Source: an uncultured Spirochaetia bacterium
GTDB taxonomy: Bacteria > Spirochaetota > Spirochaetia > SZUA-6 > Bin103
DNA: 64,000 nt
NCBI GenBank assembly: GCA_958296075.1
Contig: CATQHW010000005.1
Location: 73,270-137,269, forward strand
Direction: 5' to 3'
Within the stretch, counting starts at the first letter, position 1. The number at the start of each line of letters is the position of its first letter. The notes beneath the pieces are model-generated. The model was not told the origin of the DNA and made no database searches. It saw only the letters and a list, made by a program, of their open reading frames with translations. Below, piece after piece: positions 1 to 4,926 of this stretch. The position numbers and the translations under genes were made by a program.

Positions 1-664
1 TGCGGGCTTGAGCCTGATGTAGCAGGGTCGGCACTGTCCCGCTGGAGGCCAATCCCTTCAGGACGTGCCTTTCGGTCCCGGAATGGTGGAGAATGCTGGC
101 GGTGTGTTGTCCCTGTGGACCGACAACCGGTGCGTGCCGCGGGTCCTCCAACGGATAGGTCTCGCGCGGTCCCAGCCTCTCGGCGGTAAGATACGAGAGT
201 TGGCGCAGGCGGTCCGCCAACGACCTCGCGCTCACGGACGAAAGCGCATCACGAGGCAGCAGGTAGCGAAGCGGCTCCGATCCGTCGACGTCCCAGCCGC
301 CACCGTCGGCGAACTCGGCGCGGACGCGTTTCACGGCCATGGCCATATCGGTGCGTTCACCTTCGGCTTCCCATTCCCACTGAACGTAAGACCCATCGTC
401 TTCCTGAAGCGAGATCCCGCACGCTCGGTGCCCGTGAACCTGATCGACCACGTCGGCCGTCGTGCCCAGACGTATGACGTTCCCGTTGAGCATGAGATGC
501 GACGACCATTCGTGCTCGCGCATCGTCTGGTGCAGGAGCGCCAACGCCTGGATCACCGACGACTTGCCGGACGCATTCGTGCCGGAAAGCAGCGTCAGCG
601 GGCGTAGCGGCAGCTTCAACAACGTGAAGCACTTGAAATCACGAAGATCAACCCGTGCGAACAC
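1..664 (-). CDS. ABC/SMC-type AAA ATPase (AAA_15/AAA_21, DUF3696/OLD-like), 5' part only; 3' end lies beyond the left edge
   Basis: I checked the minus-strand frame codon by codon and it is open from 664 to the window edge. A GTG at 664-662 overlaps the upstream DUF262 stop by 17 nt. The translation VFARVDLRDFKCFTLLKLPLRPLTLLSGTNASGKSSVIQALALLHQ carries Walker A GTNASGKS in the N-terminal strand/P-loop layout typical of these ATPases. A later LSYLTAERLGPRETYP...VVGPQGQHTASIL motif fits the same family. It is not listed in the ORF track because it has no in-window end. Confidence 0.75.
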   Translation of the reverse strand, partial: MFARVDLRDFKCFTLLKLPLRPLTLLSGTNASGKSSVIQALALLHQTMREHEWSSHLMLNGNVIRLGTTADVVDQVHGHRACGISLQEDDGSYVQWEWEAEGERTDMAMAVKRVRAEFADGGGWDVDGSEPLRYLLPRDALSSVSARSLADRLRQLSYLTAERLGPRETYPLEDPRHAPVVGPQGQHTASILHHSGTERHVLKGLASSGTVPTLLHQAQAR

Positions 665-1781
665 CGAGGACCTCCTGAAACATCTGCTCGGCACGATGGA
701 AACGTTCTCGGACCCTCTTGGAGTCGTTCGTGCTATAGGTGATCGCTGTGACGAACTCGTCGTCTTGCAGCAGGCGACAAACGGACTCGCGAAGATGGTT
801 GGCGGATTTCTGGACGAGATCGCCGTGGTAACGAGACAAGCCGGTAGACATGACGTCCCAGATGGAAGCGTTGAGCACATTTCTGGCTTGCTCTCCCTCT
901 TCGTACCAACTAACGATGCTTTTCCTGAATGCGTGCCTCTCGAACAACAGATGGTTGTTTTCCATGCTTCGCTGGAACTCATCGGACAAGCGGTCGAGAT
1001 CGTCCGCTGTCATCTCGTTCATCTTACGTAGTGACTTGGCGAGGAAGTCGTCCATGTCGCCGCCATACCCAGCGAGATCGAGAAGTCGGAAGGCGCAGAA
1101 CCGATTGACGAACTCCCGGTCTCTCATTTTCTTCGTATCCAGACTCCTCCCCGTTGCTGCGAGGAACGATTCGGTGCCCGACGCCACTTTCAGGAACCGG
1201 GTAGCGGGTCCCATGAACAGACTGTTGCGCATCTGCTGTCTGCTGAGCGGCTCGCCGCTGTTTACGCGCTCGAAGATGTCCAGACGGGCTCGTTCCGGTA
1301 CTTTTGAGTCGATGACGTAGAAGATCAGGTTGCAGTCCTCGATCCGGTTCTTGAGCTTGGGCGGCAAGTCGGAGAACCGCAAACGGTCGAGTTCGGCGCG
1401 ATCCGGGAGACGGAGACGCAGTTCGTCCTGCTTGAATCGGTGAAACGTGGACAGGCGTTGCAGACCATCGACTACGATCATCCGCCCTTCCTCGTCCTCG
1501 GCCAGGTAGAATACCGGCAGCGGGATGCGCATGACCACCGATTCTATCAGTTTGCTCTGCTTGTCTTCCGGCCAGACGAAATCCCGCTGGAAGTCGGGGT
1601 CCATTATGTAGCTGCCCTGGTCGATCCGCCGAATGACTTCGAAGATCGTCCTGTTTTCGTGCCTGATCAACAAACGGTCGAGAGGATAGTCGCCCCACGA
1701 CTCGCCTGCGGTGTCCAGACCGTCCAGCTCTTCCCTAGCAGGGTTCTCGACCTGAGTCGCGGACTGTTCGGAATCGATCAT
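648..1781 (-). CDS. DUF262 (ParB/GmrSD N-terminal-like) domain protein, 377 aa, no DUF1524/HNH tail
   Basis: This is the lower part of ORF 648..2894, starting at ATG 1781 (MIDSEQSAT...). Motifs FQRDFVWPEDKQSKLIESVVMRIPLPVFYL and VVDGLQRLSTF match the DUF262 FQR...DGQQR signature. Local GC is about 56% (counted on 661-780), against a visibly richer background. Confidence 0.8.
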   Translation of the reverse strand: MIDSEQSATQVENPAREELDGLDTAGESWGDYPLDRLLIRHENRTIFEVIRRIDQGSYIMDPDFQRDFVWPEDKQSKLIESVVMRIPLPVFYLAEDEEGRMIVVDGLQRLSTFHRFKQDELRLRLPDRAELDRLRFSDLPPKLKNRIEDCNLIFYVIDSKVPERARLDIFERVNSGEPLSRQQMRNSLFMGPATRFLKVASGTESFLAATGRSLDTKKMRDREFVNRFCAFRLLDLAGYGGDMDDFLAKSLRKMNEMTADDLDRLSDEFQRSMENNHLLFERHAFRKSIVSWYEEGEQARNVLNASIWDVMSTGLSRYHGDLVQKSANHLRESVCRLLQDDEFVTAITYSTNDSKRVRERFHRAEQMFQEVLGVRTG

Positions 1782-1909
1782 GCTGTCGCTCCTGTCTCCT
1801 TTGGTGTCGGTACGCGCCTTACACCGTACTTCGGCGTGCGCGCGTCTGGCCAGCACGGCGCATGCGCAGGGCCGCGTGCGCGCGGCTGCCGAGATGGAGG
1901 CGTATCGCC

Positions 1910-3007
1910 TCAGGGGCCGGGAGCGCCCCGCGCCGCCTGCTTCTCCTGCCATGGTTGTCGCTCGCCGTAGAACGACTCGCGAGGCTTGCTTGGAGTCGCC
2001 GGCGGCGTCAGCGCGCGCAGCATGATCAGGAGATCGGTGAACCTGCCGCCGGAGCGCAGCCGTCGCGGCCACCGTGCTTCCTCGACGAAGTCGGCCGATT
2101 CCGCCAAGCGGCGCTGCTCGCCGTCCTCGGCGGCGACCATCAGCGCCAACTGCCCGATGCCGAGCGCGGACGCACGCTCGGCCGCGGCGTCCAGCAGGTC
2201 GGCGACGCAGTCGAAGTGCCGGCGGCCGACGCGAAAGCTCAATTCCGCGACGTGCTGCTCGCAGAAGGTGGAGAATCGCCGGAAGGCGACCGCGCCGACC
2301 ACTCGCGCCGTCGGCGCCTCCAGCACCAGAAACGCCCCGTTGCCGTCGTCGGCGGCGCGCATCACCCGGACAAAGTGACTCTCGTAGCGGGTGTCGCGGA
2401 ACGATGCCGACAGGGAATCCTTGATCAGCCAAGGCGGATCGGGGTGGTTGTACAGGACGCAGAGCCGAGCCAGATCGCCCCAATGCGCCTCGCGAATGGT
2501 CGTGGCGCCGCCGCCGGCGAACCAAAGGTCGTCGAAGTCTTCTGCGTCGGGCGCCAAGTAGCGCATGCCGTCGCCGGCGTGGAAGCGAAAGCCGTGGCGT
2601 TCGTACAGGCGGCCGGCGACCGGGTTGGTGGTACACAGGTAGAGCGCCCGGCCTCCCTGCGCGGTGAAGTGGCGAACGAGCGCTCCGACGAGCGCCGAAG
2701 CGACGCCAAGGCGCCGAAAGCGCTCCTCGGTGGAGACGAACTGCAGCGCGCCGACGTCGCGGGTGTCCCGCGGTGCGTAGTAGCACATCGTGCCGGCGAT
2801 CCGGCCGTCGATACGGCCGATGAAGTGCGGGGCTTGCATCCAGCGGTTGAGCGTTCCGGCCATCATCTCCTCGCGGATCAGCGGCCACCAGCAAAGGCGG
2901 TTCCAGTCGCAGGAGCGGCTGACCGGCGGTTCGGTGATCTCTATGGCCAGCGTGCTTCCGTCGCGCAACGGCGTTTCCTGGGCCGGGGAGCGGCTCATGC
3001 CGGTCAT
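1910..3007 (-). CDS. tandem GNAT-family N-acetyltransferase
   Basis: ORF 1910..3031. The first GNAT core is RRLGVASALVGALVRHFTAQGGRALYLCTTNPVAGRLYERHGF. A second acetyltransferase-like half is present (VVGAVAFRRF...ALGIGQLALMVAAEDGEQRRLAESADF). I prefer the ATG at 3007 because it is preceded by GGTGGA. Confidence 0.7.
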   Translation of the reverse strand: MTGMSRSPAQETPLRDGSTLAIEITEPPVSRSCDWNRLCWWPLIREEMMAGTLNRWMQAPHFIGRIDGRIAGTMCYYAPRDTRDVGALQFVSTEERFRRLGVASALVGALVRHFTAQGGRALYLCTTNPVAGRLYERHGFRFHAGDGMRYLAPDAEDFDDLWFAGGGATTIREAHWGDLARLCVLYNHPDPPWLIKDSLSASFRDTRYESHFVRVMRAADDGNGAFLVLEAPTARVVGAVAFRRFSTFCEQHVAELSFRVGRRHFDCVADLLDAAAERASALGIGQLALMVAAEDGEQRRLAESADFVEEARWPRRLRSGGRFTDLLIMLRALTPPATPSKPRESFYGERQPWQEKQAARGAPGP

Positions 3008-3148
3008 ATTCGTTCCACCATGATGTCTCAATAATGCCAGTTTTCGTTAGCGTGTGGTAGTCTGTTGATCTGATCCCGATAGGAGCGCCACAGCGGCAGT
3101 CGGTCCATCAACGAACGTAGCCGATCGGTGTGGCGTCGTTCCGAGGCG

Positions 3149-4135
3149 CTACCCGCCGCCGTGGGGTCGATCAGTCAACAGCCGCAGGAAGTCCGCTTTG
3201 TCGCGGCATTCCAGCGCGGCTTGCATCAGTACCTCCGTAGAGACGCCCTCCATCTCCGCCAAGCGCTGGGGCAACGCAGCCGGCGCCAGCAGGCCGCGTG
3301 CGCCGAATACCTGCCGCACCGCCGCGAGTTGCGCTTCCATCCGGCCTTCCGCCCGGCCTGCGGCGTGGCCCGCCCGGCGTTCGGCGCGCAGGAACGGATC
3401 GTCATCCGGCCCCGTGCCTTCCGCGGCACCCAGCGCTCCACCCACGCGGCGCAACGCCGCCGTGGTCGCGTCGGACAACTCCGGCTCGTTCAATGCCCGG
3501 TGAATCTCCGCCGCGGTCCAGCCGGGAAAGGCCCGGCTGCTCGGCGCCGAATGAAAGCCCCCATCCCCCAGCAGGTGAATCGTCAGACCGGGGCGCAGTC
3601 CAGCCGGGCGGCTCGGCGACGGCGTGTCGGGCACTTCTACCCACACTTCCGGAAAGCCCCAAGACTCGTATAGAGCGAGCTTGCCGCGGCGTACGTCGGT
3701 GGTGTTGTCCACCTCCAGCACTACGTCAGGGAGCGTGTCGCTGCCCACTTCGATGGCCGGACCCCAAGGCCGCGTCGCGCGCGGGCGCAGATACACCGTC
3801 TGGTCGGCCTGCATGATGCGCAGGTGGGCGCCGCGCGCATCGCGCACCAGGAGATCGGATGCTCCGAAGGTCTCAATCGGCGAGCCCCGCACGTGGGCAA
3901 TCGTCGTGAGCAGCCCTGCCAAGCGCTGCGGCGGATGTTCATGGTAGATGCTGACCGGTTCGCACACCATCGCGACTTCGGTATTGGCGTCCCAATACTC
4001 GATGCGCCCTTCGTAGTCGGCGATTGACTCCCGCGAAATACGCACCGGCCGGCAGCCGGGGAACTGCAACGACTCCGGCTCACTCTCACCATACGGTGCC
4101 GGCCGCGGGAGAGCGCTGACGTGGTATTGAGTCAT
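3149..4135 (-). CDS. Uma2-family (DUF820) PD-(D/E)XK endonuclease fused to a C-terminal helical tail resembling DUF4351
   Basis: The core PDVVLEVDNTTDVRRGKLALYESWGFPEVWVEV matches the Uma2 D...E-x-K pattern (PDl.vEv.S....D...K...Y...Gv.EyW). The C-terminal ~110 aa (AEGRMEAQLAAVRQVFGARGLL...LAEMEGVSTEVLMQAALECRDKADFLRLL) look like the tail found on Rpn/YhgA-like nucleases. Confidence 0.7.
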   Translation of the reverse strand: MTQYHVSALPRPAPYGESEPESLQFPGCRPVRISRESIADYEGRIEYWDANTEVAMVCEPVSIYHEHPPQRLAGLLTTIAHVRGSPIETFGASDLLVRDARGAHLRIMQADQTVYLRPRATRPWGPAIEVGSDTLPDVVLEVDNTTDVRRGKLALYESWGFPEVWVEVPDTPSPSRPAGLRPGLTIHLLGDGGFHSAPSSRAFPGWTAAEIHRALNEPELSDATTAALRRVGGALGAAEGTGPDDDPFLRAERRAGHAAGRAEGRMEAQLAAVRQVFGARGLLAPAALPQRLAEMEGVSTEVLMQAALECRDKADFLRLLTDRPHGGG

Positions 4136-4149
4136 GACCTGATTCTAAC

Positions 4150-4651
4150 ACGGCGGCCCGGTGAACTGCGGACCACCTGTGCACCGAGCCGCATTCTGTA
4201 TCTGGTGCAGGACCTTCGCTGGAGTCGGCTGCGCGGCCTGTCGGGCAGGGTGTATTCGATCATCCGATCCGCCACGAGTCGCCGGATGACCTTATTGAGT
4301 TGGCCTGAAATCTCCTTCTGTCCCAGGTTCTGCGATAGCTCGCCTTTGCCATCGTACCCTCAGCCAGCAACACAAGCAGTCTCGCCTCCAGCGACTCTGG
4401 CTGTGACTCTGGCCGTACTCCGTTCCCGTGTCCCTGACGAGCCCGTCCGCTGCCTGGTAGGCGGCGGAATATCGAAACTCCAACCACAGGCCGCCCTTGT
4501 AGCTGATCGGGTTGGGGTAGGGTTCGACGACGATCTGCAAGTACTCCCGCCCCGACTCCGTCTTCAGGAGTTGCGCGGCGGCATGGACTTCAACGATGAA
4601 AGCCAGCTCGGCGCCGGCGCGCGGATGAACATGATCCTGAATAGCGACCAT
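4150..4651 (-). pseudogene. decayed middle/3' part of an AlbA_2 (Schlafen-like)/RecG-like putative transcriptional regulator gene
   Basis: The frame of ORF 4292..4651 gives LLKTESGREYLQIVVEPYPNPISYKGG (AlbA_2 core). Further downstream, two other frames give ESLEARLLVLLAEG and GELSQNLGQKEISGQLNKVIRRLVADRMIEYTLPDRPRSRLQ (typical C-terminal wHTH). At least 2 frameshifts are needed to join them, and the N-terminus is missing. Boundaries are approximate. Confidence 0.6.
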
Positions 4652-4672
4652 GACGGAAGATGAGAAAGCGTC

Positions 4673-4926
4673 GTGAGAGAGAGTCAGCTCGTCGAATGGA
4701 AGGAATCATGGCGCGATGAGTACCTGAAGTGGATTTGCGGGTTCGCCAATGCTCAGGGCGGCGTGCTGGAGATCGGCAGGAACGATCACGGCGAGGTGGT
4801 CGGCGTCAAGGACGTGCTCCGGCTGTTCGAAGAGATCCCAACAAGGCGCTGGCGTCGCTCGGCATCGTGGTCGACGTGAATCTCAGATCGGTTGCCGAAC
4901 TGATGAACACCCATCGACGACGGTGA
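4673..4926 (+). pseudogene. 5' fragment of an AlbA_2 (Schlafen-like) domain gene, frameshifted and truncated
   Basis: ORF 4673..4879 reads RESQLVEWKESWRDEYLKWICGFANAQGGVLEIGRNDHGEVVGV (canonical AlbA_2 N-terminus). After ...EEIP the homologous sequence continues in another frame (ORF 4729..4926: NKALASLGIVVDVNL). It then ends about 75 residues into a family whose members are normally far longer. Confidence 0.6.

Follow-up and report, generated by a model that had tools for sequence, protein, structure and literature searches.

An apparently intact Type I Menshen (NsnABC) operon in a variable defense hotspot of an uncultured, Spirochaetia-labelled lineage

Menshen (NsnABC) is a known and already named anti-phage system. 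Its founding, experimentally validated example is that of Solibacillus silvestris StLB046, the anti-phage activity of which is cited in the domain analysis of Li et al. (Nucleic Acids Res 2025; PMC12065111). The majority class of NsnC proteins has an architecture that combines a PIN-like domain with a BECR domain bearing an H-R-H triad, and about 28% of Menshen operons are associated with Type I restriction-modification (R-M), BREX, Type III R-M, or methylases (PMC12065111). The NsnB4-NsnC2 assembly has been predicted in the literature to resemble Septu, PARIS, and Gabija. With these three systems (PtuAB, AriAB, and GajAB, respectively), Menshen shares an ABC ATPase of the OLD/AAA_15 type that is believed to bind a nuclease effector and keep it in check. 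With GmrSD/BrxU, SspE, and DndB, it shares an N-terminal DUF262 NTPase/sensor module and, after it, a helical DNA-binding domain of a related kind.

The window analyzed here is a stretch of 64,000 nucleotides from an uncultured high-GC MAG lineage, congeneric MAGs of which are labelled "Spirochaetia bacterium" by NCBI. The initial annotation had described, at its left edge, a DUF262 gene and an overlapping ABC-ATPase gene, and had put them forward as a candidate two-gene defense module with an effector that might lie farther left. When the contig was extended leftwards, a third gene (nsnC) was found wholly outside the window on that side. The defense module thus stood, and the two-gene system did not: according to PADLOC, the locus is a three-gene NsnA-NsnB-NsnC operon, transcribed in the order nsnA, nsnB, nsnC on the minus strand (Table 1). 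The PADLOC models return a complete, already named system, an outcome that had been set beforehand as telling against the two-gene proposal, which was given up. Very probably, the locus encodes a full and apparently intact Menshen system of Type I, one that was horizontally acquired and that occupies a variable defense hotspot between GNAT and enolase-superfamily (MR_MLE) genes. There is nothing new in its identity; the importance of the result is mainly one of correct annotation, as Menshen (NsnABC, Type I) and not as a candidate new system.

Table 1. Coordinates of the operon and of adjacent features. Window positions are counted from the first base of the 64,000-nt stretch.
Feature	Position	Strand	Remarks
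nsnA	window 648-1781	minus	ATG at 1781, TGA at 650-648; 377 aa
nsnB, part in window	window 1-664	minus	GTG start at 664
nsnB, full gene	514 nt left of window to window 664; C5:72755-73933; L001 11486-12664	minus	392 aa
nsnC	516 to 1466 nt left of window base 1; C5:71803-72753; L001 10534-11484	minus	316 aa
Spacer, GNAT stop to nsnA start	window 1782-1909	minus	128 nt
GNAT gene	window 1910-3031		co-directional, upstream of nsnA
YgjP 3' remnant	window 3028-3142		R-M-island debris
AlbA_2 fragments	window 4216-4883		R-M-island debris

The three genes are co-directional and coupled, as in Type I Menshen. The nsnA stop and the GTG start of nsnB overlap by 17 nt (664-648+1), and a single nucleotide separates the nsnB stop from the nsnC start. 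Each of the three reading frames is intact and, judged by its PADLOC profile, of full length. The 128-nt spacer upstream of nsnA is presumed to be the site of the operon promoter, unless transcription reads through from the GNAT gene. A consensus scan of L001 10300-14100 detected neither a sigma-70-like promoter nor an intrinsic terminator.

All three PADLOC Menshen models were matched near full length, which bore out the remark in the initial annotation that a DUF262 protein and a DUF3696-ATPase occur together in Menshen. The Pfam domains are also those published for the system, namely DUF262 in NsnA, AAA_15/AAA_21 plus DUF3696 in NsnB, and none in NsnC (compare PMC12065111). NsnA matched PDLC03877 (3.8e-113; residues 33-373 on profile positions 38-384 of 385). 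Its sole Pfam match was GmrSD_N/DUF262 (PF03235; residues 48-189, 1.8e-24); no DUF1524, HNH tail, or other nuclease domain was detected by Pfam, in keeping with its earlier description as a stand-alone DUF262 protein, and NCBIfam gave no match. The QRxxxW, DGxQR, and FxxxN motifs of Menshen NsnA are present as QRDFVW (65-70), DGLQR (105-109), and FERVN (170-174). The assigned start is confirmed by a 75%-identical orthologue that opens with the same MIDSEQSAT. The PADLOC match takes in the C-terminal half of the protein, and the C-terminal region is a predicted helical ParBDB-type domain, like that of Menshen NsnA; the protein as a whole is a predicted DNA sensor. Because NsnA is without an extra N-terminal sensor domain, the system was assigned to Type I.

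NsnB matched PDLC03878 (3.3e-102; residues 4-389 on profile positions 4-343 of 345). In Pfam it returned AAA_15 (1.8e-22), AAA_21 (1e-19), and, at the C-terminus, DUF3696 (4.4e-14); the protein ends in the last of these, and TOPRIM is absent. Walker A (GTNASGKS, residues 28-35) is present as read in the initial annotation, and the 17-nt overlap with nsnA that it had reported agrees with the coordinates. Walker B (LLLIEN, 282-287), GFG (261-263), and THS (318-320) were also located. The protein therefore keeps the GxG motif, the H-loop, and an EN-type Walker B, the EN dyad being typical of NsnB. It is predicted to be the signal transducer of the system.

NsnC matched PDLC03896 (1.1e-103; residues 2-316 on profile positions 2-319 of 319). 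It had no Pfam or NCBIfam match, and when the 62 NsnC members were all scanned with Pfam, nothing relevant came up. In the 62-sequence alignment (A2), W281-H282-G283-K284 and R291 are invariant, and H293 is nearly so. An earlier model built from 26 close homologues had a pLDDT of 61 (about 30 in the C-terminal domain), and a Foldseek search with it was discarded as meaningless, the model being too poor. A confident AlphaFold2 model (pLDDT 91.8) was built from the 62 sequences, which include a 25-33%-identical sister subfamily. In this model, the N-terminal domain is alpha/beta, and the C-terminal domain consists of a helix and then four to five strands; these strands bear H282, K284, R291, and H293, and both the two-domain layout and the conserved H...R.H pattern in the C-terminal domain resemble those of Menshen NsnC. 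A Foldseek search of the confident model against the PDB and BFVD gave nothing with E below 0.4, and an hmmsearch of the C-terminal-domain profile against all PDB sequences gave 0 matches at E up to 10. In hhalign, the same profile reached probabilities of 0.8% with E. coli YafQ and 0.4% with RelE, the sequences of both being approximate. The model is compatible with the PIN-like plus BECR majority architecture. The putative BECR assignment has two sources, the literature and a resemblance in secondary structure and motif. NsnC is a predicted nuclease effector that probably acts on RNA.

In the mechanism proposed here, the steps of sensing, signaling, and RNase activity come from the published Menshen domain analysis; what the present data give directly is the gene content, order, and coupling, the conserved motifs, the assignment to the family, the horizontal origin, and the hotspot context. 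Phage DNA would be recognized by NsnA through its ParB-like DUF262 NTPase and helical DNA-binding domain, and the signal would pass from NsnA to NsnB, an ABC ATPase that is predicted to be tetrameric. NsnB would grip NsnC with the DUF3696 helices at its C-terminus, and ATP binding or hydrolysis by NsnB would release or activate NsnC. The nuclease action of NsnC, probably on RNA, would then halt phage growth, either directly or via arrest of the infected cell.

Conservation of the gene order was examined in 80 loci retrieved with the NsnC profile. NsnA and NsnB were located upstream of NsnC, in the same order and with the same spacing, in 79 of them, the single exception being cut by a contig end. 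These loci span at least 12 phyla. The subfamily occurs, at an NsnC identity of 47-62%, in MAGs from a dozen or more phyla, a spread suggesting that transfer across phyla is frequent within a single habitat.

Base composition and chromosomal setting both bear on the origin of the operon. The low-GC patch of about 56% that had been noted at the outset was recovered (0.556-0.584 in 500-nt segments over positions 501-1750, versus 0.69-0.74 nearby). By gene, GC is 56.8% for NsnA, 62.3% for NsnB, and 63.0% for NsnC, versus 68.7% for the genome; their GC3 values are 0.74-0.76, as opposed to 0.85-0.93 for the flanking genes. The annotated flanking genes (AlbA_2/HATPase_c_4, alpha/beta hydrolase, MR_MLE, GNAT, and Uma2) include no integrase, and a search for mobile-element edges yielded neither a tRNA nor convincing repeats, direct or inverted, in the flanks. 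The GNAT and MR_MLE genes that bracket the operon are 6-60 nt apart in four congeners; in others, the same variable region holds a HEPN/MNT pair or a Type I R-M operon with a solitary NsnA. Because this junction is empty or differently occupied in congeners, the operon is regarded as horizontally acquired cargo in a defense hotspot. NsnC is present in only eight of 41 related genomes, at an identity of no more than 58%, and no traces of NsnB or NsnC were detected by tblastn in the congener regions retrieved at and around the site. From the GC3 values, the patchy distribution of NsnC, and the empty congener junctions, the origin of the operon is horizontal.

The operon has a defense-island setting beside remnants of a Type I R-M island, an association also reported for Menshen in PMC12065111. 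That island is intact in congeners G001 and G004, where the HsdM-HsdS-AlbA_2-HsdR-YgjP operon adjoins a solitary NsnA; in the present genome only debris is left, the YgjP and AlbA_2 remnants sharing 73-91% DNA identity with their intact congener counterparts. Within the genus, a single chromosomal region displays a natural series of states (a GNAT/MR_MLE junction without cargo, HEPN/MNT, Type I R-M with a solitary NsnA, and a full Menshen with R-M debris), which could be used to study defense-island turnover and any role of NsnA apart from NsnBC.

With such debris next to it, the operon could itself be a non-working leftover, decaying or silent in function, of a defense island that is eroding. 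The reduction of the neighboring island to YgjP/AlbA_2 debris, the loss of nsnB and nsnC in two congeners, and the lack of a promoter-like site in the consensus scan would fit that history. It is judged very unlikely, however, given that the three frames are intact and full length against the profiles, that every catalytic and nucleotide-binding motif is retained, and that the coupled starts are kept as in 79 other loci. Furthermore, the dN/dS of 0.33 versus the G004 orthologue places NsnA under purifying selection.

The nearest orthologues of NsnA (79% and 75% amino-acid identity) are the solitary proteins of G001 and G004, and DNA homology to both genomes ends exactly at the nsnA stop/nsnB start. 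From this arrangement it could be argued that, in this lineage, the main role of NsnA is to assist the adjacent Type I R-M island, and that the three-gene layout here is secondary and its members possibly non-cooperating. This is considered highly improbable. Of the 80 subfamily loci, 79 follow the pattern of a 17-nt nsnA/nsnB overlap with the genes in A-B-C order, from which the three-gene state is taken to be ancestral and the solitary NsnA derived; moreover, there are no intact R-M genes at the locus here for NsnA to serve. A different matter is whether NsnA is a separable module able to work without NsnB and NsnC. Since intact close orthologues occur without these partners in two congeners, NsnA may act outside the three-gene system, an idea that is advanced tentatively and held to be doubtful. 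A solitary NsnA, if functional, might supply input to a Type I restriction enzyme or serve as a stand-alone DNA-binding defense factor; in that case, Menshen in this lineage would be an output module plugged onto a sensor that is linked to R-M.

That the genes belong to another DUF262/ABC-ATPase family (GmrSD/BrxU, DndB/SspE, PD-T4-2, or a Septu/PARIS/Gabija-like pair) can scarcely be entertained: NsnA does cross-match PD-T4-2_A (1e-32) and SspE (7e-4) in PADLOC, and NsnB does cross-match PDC-M55A (3.9e-36), HEC-03B (1.6e-32), AriA (2.4e-25), GajA (9e-16), and PtuA (6e-13), but these runner-up matches, many of them partial, fall short of the Menshen ones by at least 70 orders of magnitude. In addition, a DUF1524/HNH tail is missing from NsnA, none of the flanking genes examined, from about 6 kb left to about 3 kb right, is a dnd/ssp, PtuB, AriB, or TOPRIM gene, and the third gene is a full-length NsnC. 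The individual systems were rejected on corresponding grounds. For GmrSD/BrxU Type IV restriction, GmrSD_N is the sole Pfam domain of NsnA; unlike in those enzymes, DUF1524 is not fused to it, and the output would run via separate ATPase and effector proteins. Unlike SspE and DndB, NsnA has no dnd or ssp modification genes nearby: dndACDE and sspABCD are missing from the annotated flanks, and the SspE match is confined to residues 42-83. Septu, PARIS, and Gabija differ in their HNH (PtuB), DUF4435/Toprim (AriB), and fused TOPRIM components, none of which is present, and in the separate ParB-DUF262 sensor protein of the Menshen locus; the downstream protein matches only the NsnC models of PADLOC. 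The PADLOC scores of PD-T4-2 and PDC-M55/HEC-03 were far below those of the Menshen models. The locus was accordingly retained as Type I Menshen. The one difference noted from described Type I Menshen is its host, an uncultured high-GC MAG lineage labelled as Spirochaetia.

The contig was extended leftwards (locus L001), which completed the ATPase at the window edge to 392 residues ending in DUF3696 and brought in a third co-directional gene, nsnC, starting 1 nt past the nsnB stop. The initial annotation had proposed a candidate two-gene defence module cut by the window edge, guessed that an effector lay to the left, and tentatively noted that DUF262 and a DUF3696-ATPase occur together in Menshen. 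The guess and the Menshen link were right, and the defence assignment stood; however, the module has three genes and could not be kept as an unnamed candidate, since PADLOC models assign it to a complete named system. Matches were nearly end-to-end for NsnA (PDLC03877, 3.8e-113, residues 33-373 aligned to 38-384 of 385 profile positions), NsnB (PDLC03878, 3.3e-102, 4-389 on 4-343 of 345) and NsnC (PDLC03896, 1.1e-103, 2-316 on 2-319 of 319). The runner-up systems were far weaker (PD-T4-2_A, 1e-32; PDC-M55A, 3.9e-36; also HEC-03B, AriA, GajA and PtuA). Other DUF262 or ABC-ATPase systems were ruled out by the profile scores and the absence of their defining partner domains from the three proteins and the flanking genes examined (ca. 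6 kb on the left to ca. 3 kb on the right).

The sole Pfam domain of NsnA was GmrSD_N/DUF262 (PF03235, residues 48-189, 1.8e-24), with neither a DUF1524 nor an HNH tail; all three DUF262 motifs were present (QRDFVW 65-70, DGLQR 105-109, FERVN 170-174), preceded by a short acidic stretch of ca. 47 residues with no additional domain. NsnB matched AAA_15 (1.8e-22), AAA_21 (1e-19) and C-terminal DUF3696 (4.4e-14), and featured Walker A GTNASGKS, Walker B LLLIEN (282-287), GFG (261-263) and an H-loop THS (318-320); its GTG start overlaps the nsnA stop by 17 nt. The peculiarities of the NsnB family, i.e. EN replacing DE in Walker B, GxG replacing SGG, and an H-loop (Li et al. 2025, PMC12065111), were all found in the NsnB of this locus. 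In Type I Menshen, NsnA has no extra N-terminal domain (PMC12065111). Judged from the three profile matches, the NsnB motifs and this NsnA architecture, the locus encodes a complete Menshen system of Type I. The nuclease-free DUF262 gene, the Walker A motif, the GTG start and the overlap had all been described initially and were confirmed, as was a low-GC patch of ca. 56%: GC was 0.556-0.584 over window 501-1750 (500-nt windows) vs. ca. 0.69-0.74 further in (assembly: 4.05 Mb, five contigs, 68.7% GC). Menshen is an already named system; among the by-products, just the hotspot series in congeners and two solitary NsnA genes are of mild interest. That the operon is a decaying remnant is unlikely, as all three frames are intact, the motifs are retained and the gene coupling is preserved.

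Coordinates of the operon, its surroundings and related genes (window, C5:73270-137269; L001, C5:61270-79270; window coordinate = L001 coordinate minus 12000; G000, genome under study; G001 and G004, congeners with loci L096 and L089; C1-C3 and C5, contigs of G000)
Feature	Coordinates	Strand	Remarks
nsnA	window 1781 (ATG) to 650-648 (TGA)	minus	377 aa, DUF262 protein
nsnB	L001 11486-12664; 514 nt left of window to window 664 (GTG)	minus	392-aa ATPase
nsnC	L001 10534-11484; 516-1466 nt left of window	minus	316 aa
MR_MLE (enolase superfamily)	L001 9387-10517	plus	operon flank
GNAT acetyltransferase	L001 13910-15031	minus	other operon flank
Cargo hotspot, LTD-lipoprotein to MR_MLE	window 1782-4926; L001 9387-16900		
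YgjP 3' end remnant	window 3028-3142		115 nt, just upstream of GNAT; 73% identity
Uma2-like gene	window 3149-4135	minus	328 aa
AlbA_2/HATPase_c_4 gene fragments	window 4216-4883		83-91% DNA identity to the intact gene in the G004 and G001 R-M operons
Intact AlbA_2 + HATPase_c_4 gene	L001 5951-7216; ca. 4.8-6.0 kb left of window	plus	421 aa
Solitary NsnA, G004	L089:1183-2307	minus	75% aa identity to window NsnA; PADLOC NsnA 2.1e-110
Solitary NsnA, G001	L096:7952-9064	plus	79% aa identity to window NsnA
DUF262-like paralogues, G000	C3:105301-106413; C2:463125-464048; C1:5912-6700		ca. 27% identity
NsnB-like ATPase, G000	C2:1314550-1315626		33% identity, full length

An NsnC profile built from alignment A1 (NsnC homologues) identified 263 encoding stretches in GTDB-representative genomes, and the 80 closest loci were examined by tblastn with the three proteins. 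NsnA and NsnB lay directly upstream of NsnC, with the same order, overlap and spacing, in 79 of the 80; the sole exception was truncated by its contig end. Identities to the window locus were 59-69% (NsnA), 52-70% (NsnB) and 47-62% (NsnC). Nearly all of these loci came from MAGs, spanning at least 12 phyla, with hosts labeled Binatia, Vicinamibacteria, Latescibacterota, Nitrospirales, Alpha- and Gammaproteobacteria, Bryobacterales, Thermodesulfobacteriota, Chloroflexota, Verrucomicrobiae, Rhodothermales, Gemmatimonadota, Actinomycetes and Spirochaetia. Many bin names (APA_, COS, CAR1_, RHO1_, SB0665_) are ones that we take to be from sponge-microbiome studies. Together, the phylum range and these names suggest exchange of the subfamily across phyla within one habitat.

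Composition, distribution and an empty site all indicate that the operon was acquired horizontally. GC3 was 0.74-0.76 in the three genes vs. 0.85-0.93 in flanking genes. NsnC occurred in only 8 of 41 genomes (40 relatives plus the genome under study), and the best copy among the relatives was 58% identical, below the 60-62% of Binatia and Vicinamibacteria MAGs. The flanking MR_MLE and GNAT genes were present in all 11 congeners tested (89-94% and 75-84% identity) and, in G001, G003, G009 and G011, were convergent and separated by just 6, 19, 25 and 60 nt, respectively, which is the empty site; the 3392-nt gap in the genome under study contained exactly nsnC, nsnB and nsnA. Neither a tRNA gene nor any convincing flanking repeat was found around the operon, and no integrase was seen among the annotated flanking genes.

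Comparison with the congener loci L089-L096 showed that the stretch from the LTD-lipoprotein to MR_MLE is a cargo hotspot differing in nearly every congener. Four (G006, G008, G010, G012) had ca. 940 nt at the site, encoding a HEPN-like (HI0074-type) protein and a minimal nucleotidyltransferase (MNT); G002 and G005 had only the MNT. In G004, the site held 9.7 kb encoding HsdM, HsdS, an AlbA_2/HATPase_c_4/Fic_C protein, HsdR, a YgjP-like metallopeptidase and a solitary NsnA. G001 carried this Type I R-M operon too, on the far side of GNAT, with another solitary NsnA ahead of it. As the YgjP and AlbA_2 remnants show, the genome under study keeps this island as debris only; the “head-to-head AlbA_2 remnants” reported initially are explained because these fragments are Type I R-M debris. 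Debris of this kind beside the operon is in line with the published finding that Menshen is associated with Type I R-M and similar systems (ca. 28% of operons; PMC12065111). The Uma2-like gene, which sits where congeners have the R-M operon, had a weak Pfam match (Uma2, putative restriction endonuclease, 1.4e-4, below the gathering score). The intact AlbA_2 protein, whose gene lies ca. 3.3 kb to the left of the Menshen operon, is paralogous to the decayed AlbA_2 gene on the opposite side and had partial PADLOC matches to pAgo-associated models (5.9e-20).

Both solitary NsnA genes were intact, had no NsnB or NsnC, and directly flanked the HsdM-HsdS-AlbA_2-HsdR-YgjP operon, at opposite ends. Their DNA homology to the window locus ended at the nsnA stop/nsnB start, and NsnA dN/dS was 0.33 (G000 vs. 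G004). These copies prompted the idea that NsnA is primarily an accessory of Type I R-M, which is highly improbable given that the three-gene state is clearly the subfamily rule.

NsnC of this type is a member of a large family (1170 clusters among the scored candidates, at E <= 1e-3). The protein had no match in Pfam or NCBIfam. A sister subfamily, 25-33% identical, was found via the G011 copy and was combined with the family in alignment A2 (62 sequences). The N-terminal part had the invariant residues N6, W76, G81, F83, V103, G109, E110, N155 and W174, and the C-terminal part had F243, G245, F250, P270, W281-H282-G283-K284, R291, W296 and G310; H293 was nearly invariant. With 26 close homologues as input, AlphaFold2 gave a poor initial model; the model from A2 was confident (pLDDT 91.8, pTM 0.67). 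In this predicted structure, strands alternate with helices in a PIN/Rossmann-like manner over residues 1-165, and a helical linker leads to a helix and strands 266-268, 276-278, 282-285, 290-294 and 304-311 (ca. 233-311). The latter fits the core described for BECR RNases, one helix and a four-stranded antiparallel sheet, and H282...R291.H293 resembles the H-R-H triad of PB-BECR1, the majority effector (PMC12065111). The predicted PIN-like plus BECR RNase architecture was taken as likely, short of firm, because confirmation was not obtained from Foldseek of the model against PDB and BFVD (no match with E below 0.4), the C-terminal domain profile against PDB sequences (none found), hhalign of that profile against approximate sequences of YafQ and RelE (under 1% probability) or Pfam (no match in any of the 62 members). 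Five PADLOC NsnC models matched only about the N-terminal third (within residues 1-127) and one only residues 154-313, a pattern in keeping with the published domain shuffling.

The published Menshen mechanism is the best-supported model for the locus. By analogy, NsnA would sense phage DNA via ParB-DUF262 and its DNA-binding domain; NsnB, a predicted GajA-like tetramer, would use DUF3696 helices to clamp the N-terminal domain of NsnC, with ATP binding or hydrolysis coupled to NsnC activation or release; and NsnC would then degrade nucleic acid, probably RNA, of phage or host. Higher-order Menshen complexes have been described by mass photometry (2025 preprint, 10.1101/2025.07.10.664194), and the PIN domain has been argued to be possibly active in some NsnC proteins (2026 preprint, 10.64898/2026.08.28.747851).

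Elsewhere, the genome under study encodes the three DUF262 paralogues tabulated and several DUF3696/AAA_15-like ATPase paralogues, the tabulated NsnB-like ATPase among them; on C3, a DUF262 gene and a 44-residue match to the ATPase N-terminus are ca. 3.4 kb apart. None of the DUF262 or DUF3696/AAA_15 paralogues was accompanied by an NsnC match, and they may be members of other defence systems.
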